The notes beneath the pieces were generated by a model, which did no database searches, was not told where the DNA came from, and was given only the letters and a program-made list of their open reading frames with translations. Of a stretch of DNA of 64,000 bases, positions 10,216-53,900 are shown piece after piece. The DNA lies in sequence record OR539221.1; one strand, 5' to 3'. The translations under genes were made by a program, and so were the position numbers. The DNA comes from Escherichia phage vB-Eco-KMB42. How positions within the stretch are numbered: the stretch's first letter is position 1; each line of letters begins with the position of its first letter.

Positions 10216-11634
10216 TTATGGATAGGTATAGATGATACCAGTTTCTAAAGCAGTTTTATGAATGATGTATCCATTGCGCGATTCTTGGACATCAACTTCT
10301 GGATAGTCTTTCATCATCTTCTGAAGCGTATAACGATGCAAGTAGTACTTACTATCTGGGTCGTCAGTTTTCCAATCTTTACCTTCTTCAGTCATTTTTT
10401 GGATTTCATCCATAACCCACCAACCGCACCAGATATAAGCTGAAGTACGGTGCGGAAGAGGATGAACATAAGGCAATTCACCTTCTGGTTCTGGAGCAAC
10501 TTTATCAGTCACTTGAACTTGACCTGTTGTTTTAACTGTTTTGCTATCATAATCAGTTGCTGTAACGACAGCAGTAACTTCAATAGTTTGACTTCCAACA
10601 GATGAGGTATCGACAGTATATACGTTAGTTGACCCTTCTACAGGAGAAGAATCTTTCTTCCACGAGTAAGTAATTTGTGCTTCTTCTGGAGCATCCGTAA
10701 CATTAGCCGTAAATGTAGCTGAAGCATCTTGCTGAACGTTAATAGAAGGAGGAGTCAATGTAACCTGTGGATTCATTGTCTTCTTATTAACTGTCAATGA
10801 CACTTCATTAGAAGTAACTTCCTTTTCATTGTAATTTTCTGCTGTTACTTGGGCTACGCATTTAATTCTTTTTACTCCACTTGTAGTTGGAGTATAGCTA
10901 AATGTAGAGTTAGTTTCTCCACCAACTTGTGAATCATCTACATACCACTGATACGTAGCAGATGCTCCATCAGGTTGAGAAGCTAAGGCAGCAGTAAATT
11001 GAACTGGGGTTCCAATTACTCCAGCTGAAGGACTATCGGGAGTTACTGCCAAAGTAGTTGTCTGTGTCTTTTTATTAACAGTCAGTGACACTTCATTAGA
11101 AGTAACTTCTTTTGCATCATAATCTGTCGCGGTTACTTGAGCTACACACTTAATTGTTTTAACTCCACTTGTGTCAGGAGTGTAATTGAATGTAGCGCTA
11201 GTCGCTTCGCTCACAGGAGAACTGTCAACGTACCATTGATACGTAGCAGATGCGCCTGATGGCTGCGAAGCCAAAGCAGCGGTAAATTTAACAGCTGTTC
11301 CAATCACTCCAGCCGCAGGACTAGCAGGAGTTACGGCTAAGGTAGTCGTCTGTGTCTTATTTTTAACTGTGATAGTTGTTGTCGCTTCAGCCGTTTCCGG
11401 GCCTCCTTCAGAAAGTGTATTTGTTGCAACTACTTTAATAGTCTTTTGACCAGCAGGACCTTTTAATACATAATCAAAAGTTGCTTCAGACCCATCTTGT
11501 GGAGCATTATCTACACTCCAAGCATAAGTAATAGTTCCACCTCCAGTTTCACCACTGGGTGCAGCAGTAAACTGCTTGGTTTCATCAATAACTCCTGACG
11601 GTGTTTTAGGAGTTATATCAACTGTAAAAGCCAT
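10216..11634 (-). CDS. hoc: Highly immunogenic outer capsid protein Hoc, 472 aa with four Ig-like domains
   Basis: Position between rnlB-cluster and inh; tandem Ig-like repeats plus conserved C-terminal capsid-binding region. Confidence 0.85.
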   Translation of the reverse strand: MAFTVDITPKTPSGVIDETKQFTAAPSGETGGGTITYAWSVDNAPQDGSEATFDYVLKGPAGQKTIKVVATNTLSEGGPETAEATTTITVKNKTQTTTLAVTPASPAAGVIGTAVKFTAALASQPSGASATYQWYVDSSPVSEATSATFNYTPDTSGVKTIKCVAQVTATDYDAKEVTSNEVSLTVNKKTQTTTLAVTPDSPSAGVIGTPVQFTAALASQPDGASATYQWYVDDSQVGGETNSTFSYTPTTSGVKRIKCVAQVTAENYNEKEVTSNEVSLTVNKKTMNPQVTLTPPSINVQQDASATFTANVTDAPEEAQITYSWKKDSSPVEGSTNVYTVDTSSVGSQTIEVTAVVTATDYDSKTVKTTGQVQVTDKVAPEPEGELPYVHPLPHRTSAYIWCGWWVMDEIQKMTEEGKDWKTDDPDSKYYLHRYTLQKMMKDYPEVDVQESRNGYIIHKTALETGIIYTYP

Positions 11635-11643
11635 AAGTTATCC

Positions 11644-27004: not shown

Positions 27005-27190
27005 TTAATAGAGAGCTAAAAGAGTACGATATACTTCAAACTTTGGACCTTTTTCATATGGATCAAATCTTTCCGTGAATTCATCATATGCTAGTTTATC
27101 TGGGAATTCAAGAATAACCTGCGATACCGCAGTGGAAACATCTCCACCTTCTTTTTGAGCCACGACAATTGTTTCTAAGTAAGCTTTCAT
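27005..27190 (-). CDS. Hypothetical small protein
   Basis: 61-aa ORF overlapping ligase gene stop by 4 nt. Confidence 0.5.
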   Translation of the reverse strand: MKAYLETIVVAQKEGGDVSTAVSQVILEFPDKLAYDEFTERFDPYEKGPKFEVYRTLLALY

Positions 27191-28650
27191 AAACCAGTTA
27201 CCTCATGAAAATCGCCAAATACATCTTCGAACGTATTAGCTTTAGTTTTATCTTCACGTAAACGAATTGCAATTGGAAGAAATAGCTTAACGTAATCAGT
27301 ACGTCCATCTAATTTTACCCAGCCGTTGCATTCGCACTCTAGAATTTTTCCAATATAATAATTTTGGTTTTCCATAATGCGAGTACGATCAAGTTCATGC
27401 GATTTTATACCGGCTTTATCTTTTAAGCCTGAACCAGCATTTACTTTAATTTTTCCACACTCTGATTCAAGAATGAAACCACCTGCTTTAGTAGGGTCTT
27501 TACGGTGAGGATAAATTCCTACAATTTTTAAATCAACATCAATTACTTCTTTAAATTTATAAAGATTTTTTGAACGAGCATTTTCCCATAATCCATCGAT
27601 ATTTTTAAGAATAATACCTTCAAGACCTTGGTCAATATACTTTTTATAAATTACCTTAGCTTCATCTAGGTTATTTACTATCTGGTTTTCAATTAAAATT
27701 ACTTTATCATAGCCTGATGTCATTTGTTCTAGTTTAGAAAAACGTACATCATATTTTAAACGAAATGCTGGAAGACCATATATTTCTACTAATGGAACAT
27801 AGTCCCAGACCTGAAACTTCATGCATTGTGCTTCTTTTTCAGAAATGGTTCCCTTTAAAGATTTATTAGCGATTCCATTAGAAGTAGTACGTGATTCAGC
27901 TACTTCGGCGAATTCTTTAGCTTTACTAATTTCAGGATAAGCATCAAAAAGAAAATCTAGGCCTTCTGGCTCCTTTTTAACCTGCTCATGGTATACCAAT
28001 TCGCCATCAATTAACACACCTTCTGGATGAATCTGGCGAGCTTCTGCAGTCATTTTGATTAACTCTTCCTTGAGAAGATCTAATCCTAGATATTCATTAC
28101 CAGCTCGTGATAAAAGACGAACATCATCTAATTCATCACCTCTGACTTCAGCAAAGCACCGAGCTCCATCAGCTTTTAACTGGGCAAAAGCTGGAAATTT
28201 AATATTCTTATTAATGCCTTTTTCATCATAAGAACTTGCCAGCATTTGAGGTTGTTCAGGAATTAAACCTGGCCAAACTTTATTTGCAATAGATACAGAA
28301 GCACCACATTCAAGGTCTCGCATCATTACTCGACGTAATACTTCAACATCATCTTTTTTACCATCGGTGATATATCCGATTAATTCCTCAATTGCCGCAT
28401 TTCCAGTCAATTTCCGAGTAGCTAACGTGAATTCAATGAAGTCAAGCATATCGGTAAGAGTCAACATTCCAAAACTCTGGGTAGTAATACCCGGTTTAGG
28501 CCATTTCTTGATATAATACTGTAACCCACGAGAATAAGTCAGACGATATACTCGTTTAAGCAATTCATTATCTTTATTCTTTTCAAGAATTGCTTGCTTC
28601 TGCTTAGTTGAACCAATAGATGCTATTTCGTTCAGAATTTTAAGAATCAT
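27187..28650 (-). CDS. 30: ATP-dependent DNA ligase gp30
   Basis: 487 aa as T4 DNA ligase; N-terminus MILKILNEIASIGSTKQKQAILEK; adenylation motif KADGAR. Confidence 0.95.
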   Translation of the reverse strand: MILKILNEIASIGSTKQKQAILEKNKDNELLKRVYRLTYSRGLQYYIKKWPKPGITTQSFGMLTLTDMLDFIEFTLATRKLTGNAAIEELIGYITDGKKDDVEVLRRVMMRDLECGASVSIANKVWPGLIPEQPQMLASSYDEKGINKNIKFPAFAQLKADGARCFAEVRGDELDDVRLLSRAGNEYLGLDLLKEELIKMTAEARQIHPEGVLIDGELVYHEQVKKEPEGLDFLFDAYPEISKAKEFAEVAESRTTSNGIANKSLKGTISEKEAQCMKFQVWDYVPLVEIYGLPAFRLKYDVRFSKLEQMTSGYDKVILIENQIVNNLDEAKVIYKKYIDQGLEGIILKNIDGLWENARSKNLYKFKEVIDVDLKIVGIYPHRKDPTKAGGFILESECGKIKVNAGSGLKDKAGIKSHELDRTRIMENQNYYIGKILECECNGWVKLDGRTDYVKLFLPIAIRLREDKTKANTFEDVFGDFHEVTGL

Positions 28651-28916
28651 TGTTCATCCTTTAGAGTTTGGTTTACAGCTCTATTATAAATCAATTCATC
28701 ATTAAGCTCAGTCAAAGACCTGTGGTACGTGGTTCTAACTTTATTTCCTTGCATCCAGTGCTTGACGTAAATGAAACCTTGCTCTACACATTTTTTAAAA
28801 ATTCGTTCGTCTTTTTGAGCTCGGAATTCTGGATTGCATCTAAAAAATTGATTTACGTGACCGTAATCACGTGTAGTATTACCTTCATTTTCATAAATAG
28901 TGTGAACGACAAACAT
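28647..28916 (-). CDS. Hypothetical protein (30.1-like position)
   Basis: 89-aa ORF start overlapping ligase; tight packing. Confidence 0.55.
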   Translation of the reverse strand: MFVVHTIYENEGNTTRDYGHVNQFFRCNPEFRAQKDERIFKKCVEQGFIYVKHWMQGNKVRTTYHRSLTELNDELIYNRAVNQTLKDEQ

Positions 28917-29009
28917 TAGAATGCTCCTTGGAAAATATTATCACCACTAGTAGGTCTATTATACAAATACTCTATGCCACCGGGTTTAATATAGTTCCAT
29001 GTCTGAAAC

Positions 29010-29119
29010 GGATGCGTCTGATATGGATGATATAGATTATAAGGATTAAATCCAGGAGTTCTCCGGATGCGTCTGATATGGATGATATAGATTATAAGGA
29101 TTAAATCCAGGAGTTCTCC
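29010..29119. repeat. Perfect 55-bp direct tandem duplication (2 copies: 29010-29064 and 29065-29119)
   Basis: Identical 55-mer ggatgcgtctgatatggatgatatagattataaggattaaatccaggagttctcc repeated head-to-tail. Confidence 0.95.
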
Positions 29120-29807
29120 AGGTAGTGTTCCAAGGAAAAGAATCATTTTTAATCATCTTTTCAATTACATCTTTTATAGCTTTTTCACTATCAAAACTTT
29201 CTTTATTTTCATTCGATGGAAAAAGCTTATTCTCTACATCATTCCATGTATAAACTCGCTGTGCAGTTTTTGGAATACTGTCACGCTCCCCTCGAGCCAT
29301 CCAATAAACAGGAACATTTAATATTTCACTCGCATGATCGCAGTGGTGAGCGAGATCGTCAATATAACAAATTACGTTATATTTCTCTTTTGCCTTTTTG
29401 AACAACTCTTCTTTTGAAGAATCATGACCACACATCAATACTTCTGAGAAGGCACCAGGAAAAAGAGCATTCAAATTAAATTGACGATTCAGCAGAGCGT
29501 CAATAGAATCACCCAGTGCTGTAACAGCTACAAAATTATAATCTTCTTTTAATTTGTTAATTACACACAGGGCATCTTTATATGGAGACAAATAGCGAAT
29601 AAAATCTGAACGATTATACTTTTCGATTAATTTAACACCAAGTTCTTCATCGCAATTAAAGAGCTTACCAGGAGAAATAAATTTTTCGTCCTGAATCATT
29701 TTTAAAATATGTTCCAACGGAAGATTATATTTTTGGGCAAAATAAGGAAGGCCCGATTGCCAGCTTAAACACACCCCGTCAATATCAGTCAAAATAGTAG
29801 GCTTCAT
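29046..29807 (-). CDS. HAD-superfamily hydrolase-like protein (30.2-like), C-terminus disrupted by the 55-bp duplication
   Basis: 253 aa; N-terminal LTDIDGV (HAD motif I-like) and later YIDD; ORF ends inside tandem repeat; downstream remnant ORF 28916-29146 repeats RTPGFNPYNLYHPYQTHP in a shifted frame. Confidence 0.65.
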   Translation of the reverse strand: MKPTILTDIDGVCLSWQSGLPYFAQKYNLPLEHILKMIQDEKFISPGKLFNCDEELGVKLIEKYNRSDFIRYLSPYKDALCVINKLKEDYNFVAVTALGDSIDALLNRQFNLNALFPGAFSEVLMCGHDSSKEELFKKAKEKYNVICYIDDLAHHCDHASEILNVPVYWMARGERDSIPKTAQRVYTWNDVENKLFPSNENKESFDSEKAIKDVIEKMIKNDSFPWNTTWRTPGFNPYNLYHPYQTHPENSWI

Positions 29808-30268
29808 AGAGAGTCTCTTAATAGGTTTAACACATCAATAAATTCAGCTTCGGTTAGTATTGTATCATCTTTTGTTAGACCACTAGCCATGCTATGCTTC
29901 AAAATTTTTCCTTTAGAGGCTTGTAAGGCATCACGAAACCCCTTGTTTTGAATCGCTGCTTCAAAATATGCATTTGTATACAACTCTTTCCATGCTACAG
30001 AGTATCTTGAAAAGGGAATTCCAAGCCAGAAAAGCGTCCCACGGTCCGCAGCTCTTGCATAAGCTCTTCCACTTTGCTGGGCGGCCAAGCCGGAGAGCCC
30101 AAATATACGTTTTTGTTGTTCAACATTTTTCACCTTGCATCCTTGGAGGAATCCTTCAAGACCTCCGAATTGAATACCATCCATGACGAAAGGCCATTGG
30201 GCGAAATTACTTAATGCACACGATGGCCATCTAAAATTGCTTCTAATCTCTAACTCAGACATTTTCAA
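29804..30268 (-). CDS. NADAR/YbiA-like (DUF1768-type) domain protein (30.3-like position)
   Basis: 154 aa; N-terminal pattern LSNFAQWPFVMDGIQFGGLEGFLQGCK resembles the SNF..P...DG....E..FQ..K signature of YbiA/NADAR proteins (from memory, not searched). Confidence 0.6.
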   Translation of the reverse strand: MKMSELEIRSNFRWPSCALSNFAQWPFVMDGIQFGGLEGFLQGCKVKNVEQQKRIFGLSGLAAQQSGRAYARAADRGTLFWLGIPFSRYSVAWKELYTNAYFEAAIQNKGFRDALQASKGKILKHSMASGLTKDDTILTEAEFIDVLNLLRDSL

Positions 30269-43819: not shown

Positions 43820-44680
43820 TTATACCGCCATTTTTCCTTTAATTGGCGGGTGAGATACATAGTTTTTAAGAACAAAATCATGTGGCTTTGCAAATTGACT
43901 CAACCAAAATACCTGCGATTCTGTGTCCCATTCATCAAATTCATCTGGAAATTTTAATTGTAATTCGCATAAATCCATAGGTTCACGGCGTAAAATTTCT
44001 TTACATTGTTCTACGTGATTCATATAGATATGAGTATTACCACCAGAAAATATCAAATCTCCAGGAATAAGATTACACATTTTAGCTACAATATGAACTA
44101 ACGTAGCATATGATGCAATATTAAATGGAAGACCGAGGAAAACATCTACCGAACGTTGATACCACTGCAAATCCAAATAGCAATTACGCACATTAAACTG
44201 ATAGAACATATGACAAGGAGGTAATGCCATATATTTAAGTTCAGCTGGATTCCATGCAGAAACAATTTGACGCCTATCATTTGGCAGTTTTTTAATACGA
44301 TCAACAACTTCTATAATTTGGTCTACACCGCCAAAATCACGCCACTGTTTTCCATAAATTGGACCAAGTTCACCGCTATGGTATCCTAAATCTTTTGCCT
44401 GATTTTCGTAATTTTCATCCCAAACTGTTTTGCCTTGGATTAACGAATCGTGTTGAATTAATCGTAAATCATTGACATTTGTGCTTCCTGATAAAAACCA
44501 TATTAGCTCAGCAATGCATGCATTCCAGGCGAGCTTTTTAGTTGTTACTGCAGGAAAACCTTTAGTTAAATCCCAGCGTAATTTAGTACCGAACAAAGCA
44601 ATTGTTCCTGTGCCTGTTCGATCATCGGTTTCATAGCCATTTTCAAAAATGTCTTTAATTAAATCTTGGTATTGTTTCAT
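43820..44680 (-). CDS. td: Thymidylate synthase (uninterrupted, no intron)
   Basis: 286-aa continuous ORF with TS motifs (catalytic Cys in ALPPCHMFYQF); T4 td is split by a group I intron but is not here. Confidence 0.95.
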   Translation of the reverse strand: MKQYQDLIKDIFENGYETDDRTGTGTIALFGTKLRWDLTKGFPAVTTKKLAWNACIAELIWFLSGSTNVNDLRLIQHDSLIQGKTVWDENYENQAKDLGYHSGELGPIYGKQWRDFGGVDQIIEVVDRIKKLPNDRRQIVSAWNPAELKYMALPPCHMFYQFNVRNCYLDLQWYQRSVDVFLGLPFNIASYATLVHIVAKMCNLIPGDLIFSGGNTHIYMNHVEQCKEILRREPMDLCELQLKFPDEFDEWDTESQVFWLSQFAKPHDFVLKNYVSHPPIKGKMAV

Positions 44681-50931: not shown

Positions 50932-53900
50932 ATGGCCGAGATTAAAAGAAAGTTCAGAGCAGAAGACGGTCTGGACGCAGGTGGCGATAAAATAATCAAC
51001 GTAGCTTTAGCTGATCGTACCGTAGGAACTGACGGTGTTAACGTTGATTACTTAATTCAAGAAAACACAGTTCAACAATATGATCCAACTCGTGGATATT
51101 TAAAAGATTTTGTAATCATTTATGATAACCGCTTTTGGGCTGCTATAAATGATATTCCAAAACCAGCAGGAGCTTTTAATAGCGTACGATGGAGAGCGTT
51201 ACGTACTGATGCAAACTGGACAACTGTTTCGTCAGGACCTTATCAATTAAAATCAGGCGAATCGATTTCAGTTAACACTGCAGCGGGTAATGACATTACA
51301 TTTACTTTGCCATCTTCTCCAATTGATGGTGATACTATCGTTCTCCAAGATATTGGAGGAAAACCTGGAGTTAACCAGGTTTTAATTACAGCTCCGGTAC
51401 AAAGCATTGTAAACTTTAGAGGTCAACAAGTACGCTCAGTACTAATGACTCATCCAAAATCACAGATAGTTTTAATTTTTAGTAATCGTCTGTGGCAAAT
51501 GTATGTTGCTGATTATAGCAGAGAAGCGGCAGTTGTAACGCCAGCGAGTCTTTATCAAGCGCAATCAAACGATTTTATCGTGCGTAGATTTACTTCTGCT
51601 TCAGCAATTAATATTAAACTTCCTAGATTTGCTAATCATGGGGATATTATTAATTTTGTTGATTTAGATAAATTAAATCCGTTATATCATACTATCGTTA
51701 CTACATACGATGAAACGACTTCAGTACAAGAAGTTGGAACTCATTCCATTGAAGGCCGTACATCTATTGATGGTTTCTTAATGTTTGATGATAATGAGAA
51801 ATTGTGGAGATTATTTGACGGGGATAGTAAAGCACGTTTACGCATTATAACGACTAATTCTAATATTCGTCCAAATGAAGAAGTCATGGTATTTGGTGCG
51901 AATAATGGAACAACCCAAACAATTGAACTTCAGCTTCCAACTGATATTTCTATCGGTGATACTGTTAAGATTTCCATGAATTATATGAGAAAAGGACAAA
52001 CAGTTAAAATCAAAGCTGCTGGTGAAGATAAAATTGCTTCTTCAGTTCAATTGCTGCAATTTCCAAAACGTTCAGAATACCCACCTGAAACTAAATGGGT
52101 AACTGTTCAAGAATTAGTTTTTAATGGCGAAACCAATTATGTTCCAGTTTTACAGCTTGCTTATATCGAAGATTCCGATGGAAAATATTGGGTTGTACAG
52201 CAAAACGTTCCAACCGTAGAAAGAGTAGACTCTTTAAATAATTCTACTAGAGCAAGATTAGGTGTAATTGCATTAGCTACACAGGCTCAAGCTAATGCAG
52301 ATTTAGAAAATTCTCCACAAAAAGAATTGGCAATTACTCCAGAAACGTTAGCTAATCGTACTGCTACAGAAACTCGTAGAGGTATTGCAAGAATAGCAAC
52401 AACTGCGCAAGTAAACCAGGATACCACATTCTCTTTTGCAGATGACCTTATCATCACTCCTAAAAAGTTGAATGAAAGAACTGCTACAGAAACTCGCAGA
52501 GGTGTCGCTGAAATTGCTACACAGCAAGAAACTAATGCAGGAACCGATGATACGACAATCATCACTCCTAAAAAGCTTCAAGCTCGTCAAGGTTCTGAAT
52601 CATTATCTGGTATTGTAACTTTTGTATCTACTGCAGGTGCTACTCCGGCTTCTAGCCGTGAATTAAATGGTACGAATGTTTATAATAAAAACACTAATAA
52701 CTTAGTTGTTTCGCCTAAAGCTTTGGATCAGTATAAAGCTACTCCAACGCAACAAGGTGCAGTAATTTTAGCAGTTGAAAGTGAAGTAATTGCTGGACAA
52801 AGCCAAGAAGGATGGGCAAATGCGGTTGTAACGCCAGAAACGTTACATAAAAAGACATCAACTGATGGAAGAATTGGTTTAATTGAAATTGCTACTCAAA
52901 GTGAAGTTAATACAGGAACTGATTATACTCGTGCAGTCACTCCTAAAACTTTAAATGACCGTAGAGCAACTGAAAGTTTAAGTGGTATAGCTGAAATTGC
53001 TACACAAGTTGAATTCGACGCAGGCGTCGACGATACTCGTATCTCTACACCATTAAAAATTAAAACTAGATTTAATAGTACTGATCGTACTTCTGTTGTT
53101 GCTCTATCTGGATTAGTTGAATCAGGAACTCTCTGGGACCATTATACCCTTAATATTCTTGAAGCAAATGAGACACAACGTGGTACACTTCGTGTGGCTA
53201 CACAAGTTGAAGCTGCTGCTGGAAAATTAGATAATGTTTTAATAACTCCTAAAAAGCTTTTAGGTACTAAATCTACTGAAGCGCAAGAAGGTGTTATTAA
53301 AGTTGCAACTCAGTCTGAAACTGTGACTGGAACGTCAGCAAATACTGCTGTATCTCCAAAAAATTTAAAATGGATTGTGCAGAGTGAACCTACCTGGGCA
53401 GCTACTACTGCAGTAAGAGGCTTTGTTAAAACTTCATCTGGTTCAATTACATTTGTCGGTAATGATACAGTCGGTTCTACCCAAGATTTAGAACTGTATG
53501 AGAAAAATAGTTATGCAGTATCACCATATGAATTAAACCGTGTATTAGCAAATTATTTGCCATTAAAAGCAAAAGCTGCAGATAGTAATTTATTGGATGG
53601 TCTAGATTCATCTCAGTTCATTCGTAGGGACATTGCGCAGACGGTTAATGGTTCACTAACCTTAACTCAACAAACGAATCTGAGTGCCCCTCTTGTATCA
53701 TCTAGTACTGCTACGTTTGGTGGTTCAGTTACAGCAAATAGTGTACTAACGATTTCTAATACTGGAACAGCAACTCGATTGATTTTTGAGAAAGGACCTC
53801 AAACTGGAACAAACCCAGCCCAAACGATGACTGTTAGAGTGTGGGGAAATCAATTTAGTGGGGAATTAGATACAACACGTTCTACCGTATTTGAAGTTAG

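Follow-up and report, generated by a model that had tools for sequence, protein, structure and literature searches.

A perfect 55-bp tandem duplication in gene 30.2 of the T4-like phage record OR539221.1 is most probably an untrimmed assembly overlap

T4-type genomes are circularly permuted, and when a template is circular or circularly permuted, the contig that a de Bruijn-graph assembler produces from it carries an identical stretch of k bases at its two ends. The standard SPAdes k values are 21, 33, 55, 77, 99 and 127; default metaSPAdes runs, like many SPAdes runs, finish at 55. Tandem repeats also arise in the phages themselves: the spontaneous tandem-duplication frameshifts known from the classical rII genetics of T-even phages usually have short end homologies and show no preferred length. 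K-mer overlaps at contig ends have been documented, including 55-bp and 127-bp cases (PMC13631441, PMC12686479, PMC5923482, PMC8851603). SPAdes contigs from circular templates carried 55-bp repeats at k=55 and 77-bp repeats when the assembly was re-run at k=77 (PMC13631441). In a circularly permuted phage contig, the first 55 bases were repeated at the end and were removed before circularisation (PMC12686479), and an overlap of 55 bp has also been described at the ends of a circular contig (PMC8851603).

Here, we analysed a stretch of 64,000 nucleotides (hereafter, the window) of the Escherichia phage vB-Eco-KMB42 record OR539221.1, in which gene 30.2 contains a head-to-tail duplication of 55 bp. 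As in the documented SPAdes and metaSPAdes overlaps, the two copies are identical, their length equals a final k of 55, and the template belongs to a circularly permuted type. In those cases, however, the copies lie at opposite contig ends, whereas in the window they are adjacent and internal; thus, an additional rotation or concatenation step without trimming is needed to explain them. The window shares with the T-even rII events a head-to-tail duplication that shifts the frame of a gene, but differs from them in that the boundary homology is 1 bp and the length coincides with an assembler k. Our literature search on tandem duplication and microhomology in T4 returned nothing specific.

The window comes from a T4-like phage (Tequatrovirus) and is 98-99% identical to phages ECP52 and BECP11 (Escherichia phage vB_EcoM-BECP11, MW286157.1), with the closest match over 24 kb being 98.7% identical. 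Genes 30, 30.1, 30.2 and 30.3 are all encoded on the minus strand, and the features of the locus are as follows:

27187 to 28650, minus strand: gene 30, ATP-dependent DNA ligase, the landmark of the locus (annotation of relatives; PF01068 on an identical protein)
28647 to 28916, minus strand: gene 30.1 (DUF3045; Pfam PF11243, E = 3e-64)
28916 to 29064, minus strand: native 3′ end of gene 30.2, no longer in the frame of the preceding part of the gene, encoding ...FQTWNYIKPGGIEYLYNRPTSGDNIFQGAF, which includes the GIEYLxxxPT motif
29010 to 29064, no strand assigned: copy 1 of the 55-bp unit (GGATGCGTCTGATATGGATGATATAGATTATAAGGATTAAATCCAGGAGTTCTCC), which the minus-strand reading meets second and out of frame (ENSWI-stop)
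29064/29065: novel junction between the two copies, CTCC/GGAT
29065 to 29119, no strand assigned: copy 2 of the 55-bp unit, identical to copy 1, which the minus-strand reading meets first and in the native frame (RTPGFNPYNLYHPYQTHP)
29046 to 29807, minus strand: gene 30.2 as it stands in the record, 253 aa, consisting of 248 native residues plus ENSWI, with the whole conserved HAD-fold core (aa 1-195) kept
29804 to 30268, minus strand: gene 30.3 (Pfam Phage_30_3), the upstream neighbour of gene 30.2 (PF08010, E = 2e-67)

The ATG of gene 30.1 overlaps the native stop codon of gene 30.2 (TAATG). A Shine-Dalgarno sequence belonging to gene 30.1 itself, AAGGAG, precedes this ATG; therefore, any polarity on gene 30.1 need not be severe.

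Several features were also noted elsewhere in the window. The thymidylate synthase gene (td), at 43820-44680 on the minus strand, encodes its 286 aa in one continuous ORF (Pfam Thymidylat_synt, E = 6e-94), whereas the td gene of ECP52 is split by approximately 1 kb carrying the I-TevI homing endonuclease; the window thus holds an intron-less td allele. A 288-nt tandem repeat of two copies with 77% identity lies at 10777-11352, inside the minus-strand ORF 10216-11637, whose 473-aa product, a homologue of the 'head decoration protein' of ECP52, has PKD and Ig-like domain matches; the repeat has the appearance of a single 96-aa Ig-like domain that was duplicated in tandem long ago. Between 58198 and 60336, identity to ECP52 falls to about 86%, compared with 96-99% elsewhere. 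This segment corresponds in ECP52 to tail-fibre and tail-fibre-assembly genes, and its low identity is the usual T-even host-range mosaic. Additionally, a 69-nt direct repeat with 120-nt spacing and 72% identity at 52333-52521 encodes peptide repeats of the I(T/S)PxxLxxRTATETRRG type, presumably within a fibre protein gene.

Based on Tandem Repeats Finder, the repeat in gene 30.2 extends over 29009-29119 with a period of 55, 2.0 copies, 100% matches and zero indels, and a direct string comparison showed that 29010-29064 is identical to 29065-29119, in head-to-tail arrangement. The sequence around the 29064/29065 junction is ...GGAGTTCTCC/GGATGCGTCTG..., or, in a shorter form, ...AATCCAGGAGTTCTCC/GGATGCGTCTGATATGG... 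According to the same string comparison, the match between the copies runs one base further to the left (a C at both 29009 and 29064) and no further to the right, so that the boundary homology amounts to 1 bp on one side; by our estimate, chance alone would give one or more matching bases on one side in approximately 40-50% of cases. From the 36% GC composition, we calculated a chance expectation of 64000 x 0.27^55, or about 1e-27, for a 55-bp repeat; therefore, the match between the copies is not due to chance. A repeat search of the whole 64-kb window found no second perfect tandem repeat, and the window holds 0 N bases.

Since 55 mod 3 = 1, the extra copy causes a +1 frameshift of the minus-strand gene 30.2, and translation beyond copy 2 continues with ENSWI and a stop. 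The 253-aa ORF accordingly ends in ...RTPGFNPYNLYHPYQTHP-ENSWI-stop, while the native C-terminus is held by a 76-aa remnant ORF (28916-29146, minus strand), of which 28916-29064 is the lower part. When one copy was deleted in silico, a single ORF of 278 aa was obtained, which is the length of the annotated 30.2 protein in BECP11 and ECP52 (837 nt). The first-pass annotation had described a perfect 55-bp tandem duplication at 29010-29119 that shifts the frame of the gene and leads to a stop after 5 more codons, and the repeat analyses and the list of ORFs agree with it on both points. It had also anticipated that removal of one copy would restore a single ORF of about 279 aa, and that the remnant ORF carries the same peptide followed by 31 residues in the original frame. 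The single ORF, the shared peptide and the frame were recovered, with the lengths corrected to 278 aa and to 30 further residues, and the comparison of the one-copy allele with relatives that it had proposed gave the agreement in 30.2 length with BECP11 and ECP52.

The product of gene 30.2, gp30.2, belongs to PHROG 420 (function unknown; E = 4e-93), and, as written in the record, it lacks its last 30 residues. For its earlier description as the product of a HAD-like gene, sequence searches gave negative or marginal results: no Pfam match was found at E <= 0.01, HAD models included, and the only hit of a phmmer search of PDB sequences was a marginal one (E = 1.4) to a 5′(3′)-deoxyribonucleotidase. 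The description was upheld by the fold search and by the conserved motifs. A search of a collection of 5.8 billion proteins yielded 100 gp30.2 homologues, and two sources call homologues HAD or deoxyribonucleotidase. An alignment of 93 sequences shows no variation at D8, D10 and K132, and conservation of 90% or more at G11, T96, D150 and D151. Assigned by position and pattern, these residues would fit HAD motifs I (DxDx(T/V)), II (S/T), III (K/R) and IV (DD). The AlphaFold2 model built on the 93-homologue alignment has a mean pLDDT of 84.7, with values above 90 in the core (aa 1-195) and low confidence in the tail (approximately residues 200-279). A Foldseek comparison of this model with the PDB gave 95 matches at E <= 0.001, and the best 50 of the 95 are all HAD-type hydrolases; the matches include the cytosolic and mitochondrial 5′(3′)-deoxyribonucleotidases. 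PDB 2jao, 2i7d and 3bwv are among the HAD hydrolases matched. Within the HAD superfamily, the predicted fold of the gp30.2 family is closest to the 5′(3′)-deoxyribonucleotidases. Predicted fold and motifs together support the view that gene 30.2 encodes a HAD-fold protein.

The homologues fall into two size classes, a short class of about 196-220 aa that consists of the core only and a long class of about 260-300 aa. A C-terminal motif, GTGIEYLxRQPT, is present in 15 of the 48 long homologues; the native tail of the gp30.2 of the window has it as GGIEYLYNRPT, which the 253-aa product would lose. Long homologues with an overall identity of only about 50% (P0001, P0005, P0023, P0040, P0042 and others) share the motif, and it ends an otherwise variable tail of low pLDDT, its counterpart in the window lying in 28916-29010 on the minus strand. 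GTGIEYLxRQPT could be a docking peptide for some partner. Among the short homologues, the 220-aa cluster representative P0002 (39 member sequences) equals gp30.2 over approximately its first 206 residues and finishes with RSEEHTSELQSQN, an ending that looks like a translated Illumina adapter; if so, P0002 would be a contig chimera in a public assembly.

We then compared the number of copies in relatives. A megablast search with 28600-29900 matched 676 phage records. For the best relatives (99.9-97.9% identity), the alignment is broken into two pieces and covers 55 bp less than the query; these relatives, therefore, have one copy. Likewise, when an 80-mer across the junction was used as the query, relatives matched it only in two overlapping pieces spanning 56 bp. 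One copy was found in each of the 321 records matching the site, and none of them contains the junction. In a base-level alignment, the window minus one copy equals BECP11 and ECP52 base for base at the site; other relatives differ there by in-frame indels of 3 nt or 6 nt. Relative to ECP52, no multi-base indel other than the 55-bp insertion occurs across positions 14404-43840 of the window. A 40-mer centred on the junction, which can match only a two-copy genome, gave no megablast match, either among 50,697 phage records or among 20,395 E. coli records, and a junction 33-mer had no exact match in IMG/VR, in metagenome contigs or in genome contigs. At the protein level, our search found no record of the 253-aa product, and the contigs that encode an identical DNA ligase belong to other strains, which are 97-99% identical and have a 30.2 protein of 278 aa or 280 aa. 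An ancestral two-copy arrangement shared with related phages, the finding that the first-pass annotation had named as contrary to a disruption, was thus seen in no relative.

Related records show overlaps of the same kind at their ends. We compared the first and last 300 nt in 11 related Tequatrovirus GenBank records and found exact overlaps between prefix and suffix in 2 of these 11 'complete genome' records. BECP11, the closest relative at the locus, has an exact 99-nt end overlap, and Pseudomonas phage PsgM02F (OR584013.1) has one of 127 nt; both lengths are SPAdes k values. These overlaps look like untrimmed SPAdes k-mer overlaps that make the stated genome lengths too long by 99 and 127 nt, respectively, and rotating either record as deposited would produce the same kind of internal tandem repeat as that in gene 30.2. 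The two records and the window are alike in that all are Tequatrovirus with an exactly duplicated stretch as long as an assembler k; they differ in that the overlaps of 99 and 127 nt lie at the record ends, whereas the copies of 55 bp in the window are internal. Related records have also been deposited as circular or with end overlaps.

Taken together, these observations point to an assembly or finishing artefact, that is, an untrimmed k=55 overlap rather than a part of the phage genome, as the very probable origin of the 55-bp duplication. The two copies are 100% identical, their length is a standard k, the template is circularly permuted and the extra copy is absent from relatives. In the mechanism that we propose, the circularly permuted T4-like genome would have been closed into a circle by a de Bruijn-graph assembler, and the circle would then have been written as a linear contig whose first k bases equal its last k; if the last k used by SPAdes or metaSPAdes was 55, the overlap between the contig ends would be exactly 55 bp. 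If this contig was rotated to a conventional start, or if graph-adjacent contigs were concatenated, in either case with the overlap left in place, the copies would come to lie side by side. An untrimmed join of this type would create a perfect two-copy tandem repeat with period k at an arbitrary genome position, and the old contig ends would have happened to fall inside gene 30.2. The gene would appear frameshifted because the old ends lie inside it and 55 is not divisible by 3. Both the k=55 assembly and the later rotation or joining of the OR539221.1 record are steps that we infer. The 1-bp boundary homology is at chance level, which would fit an arbitrary contig cut point better than slippage between short repeats. 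The orientation of the window is that of the T4-convention records wV7, RB14 and RB51 (locus at approximately 124-127 kb, plus strand), which is compatible with a rotated record, although this agreement is expected half the time by chance. On the opposite side, a real truncation of gp30.2 might be tolerable, as gene 30.2 is grouped with other small genes without known function and the C-terminal tail of its product varies among homologues.

Among the biological explanations, the one that survives best is a genuine and very recent 55-bp tandem duplication, generated by replication slippage, template switching or illegitimate recombination, that converts gp30.2 into 248 residues plus ENSWI; we consider it unlikely. 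Such an event would keep the HAD core and remove the final 30 residues, including the conserved C-terminal motif. The two copies are present in the sequence as given, in a local assembly that is otherwise clean, with no N bases and with flanks 99.9% identical to BECP11, and some local slippage is indicated by the imperfect 9-nt and 15-nt repeats of the region and by the in-frame 3-nt and 6-nt indels of the relatives. Nevertheless, a boundary homology of just 1 bp does not favour this origin, and a genuine duplication would have no reason for a length of exactly 55 bp, a canonical assembler k. We estimate the likelihood of this exact length at no more than approximately 1-2% under a genuine duplication, whereas under an artefact 55 is one of about four common values; considered together with the frequency of untrimmed overlaps in the related records, the odds therefore strongly favour an artefact. 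T4 recombines efficiently on homologies of about 50 bp, and a 55-bp duplication would therefore be unstable. The many natural homologues of 196-220 aa that have no tail indicate that a truncated protein could be tolerated, and the downstream gene 30.1 has a separate Shine-Dalgarno sequence; against a genuine duplication, the conservation of GTGIEYLxRQPT, which the truncated product loses, across homologues of about 50% identity argues for selection against its loss. The arrangement is, moreover, unique with respect to the 676 matching records and to all the other collections searched.

It is correspondingly improbable that the duplication is physically real and forms a natural tail-less gp30.2 allele that retains the catalytic core, has had GIEYLxxxPT removed and can revert by recombination between the 55-bp copies. 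If this were true, such a reversible allele would be useful for probing the role of the tail in this uncharacterised protein.

We regard as highly improbable a programmed or recurrent copy-number switch, i.e., phase variation at a contingency locus that would toggle the C-terminal tail of gp30.2. The 55-bp unit does shift the frame, and losing one copy would restore it; however, no copy-number variation was seen, with one copy in 321 of 321 site-matching records and the junction in none, only two copies of a long unit are present instead of an array of short units, and the one-copy sequence is without flanking repeats that would make the event recurrent. Because the copy number is constant among hundreds of relatives, slippage or phase variation is unsupported. 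Of the three readings that the first-pass annotation had left side by side, the assembly artefact is therefore favoured, now with a k=55 mechanism attached to it, the frameshift as a biological event is less likely, and slippage or phase variation is left without support.

Two further explanations were rejected: a chimeric join of two phages at the junction, given that both flanks are 99.9% identical to BECP11 across 28600-29900 (the divergence of BECP11 from the window starts further left, in the ligase gene), and a generally error-prone assembly, given the lack of N bases and the presence, apart from the duplication site, of only two single-base indels relative to ECP52 in 29 kb, which lie in or near short, possibly coding open frames of 74-88 codons.

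The duplication is present in the sequence, yet it is most probably not a biological feature, and its main value is one of quality control, as a flag for the OR539221.1 record and for a wider class of records. As 2 of the 11 related records have untrimmed overlaps, this class of error looks common enough for automatic screening, and the target of such a screen would be perfect two-copy repeats whose period equals an assembler k, either at record ends or inside the record. Biological conclusions on gene 30.2 drawn from the duplication site, such as pseudogenisation or phase variation, need read-level evidence first. If the duplication is an artefact, the record contains 55 spurious bases and overstates the genome length by 55 bp, and gene 30.2, a conserved gene with a predicted HAD-fold product, has been wrongly split into ORFs of 253 aa and 76 aa.
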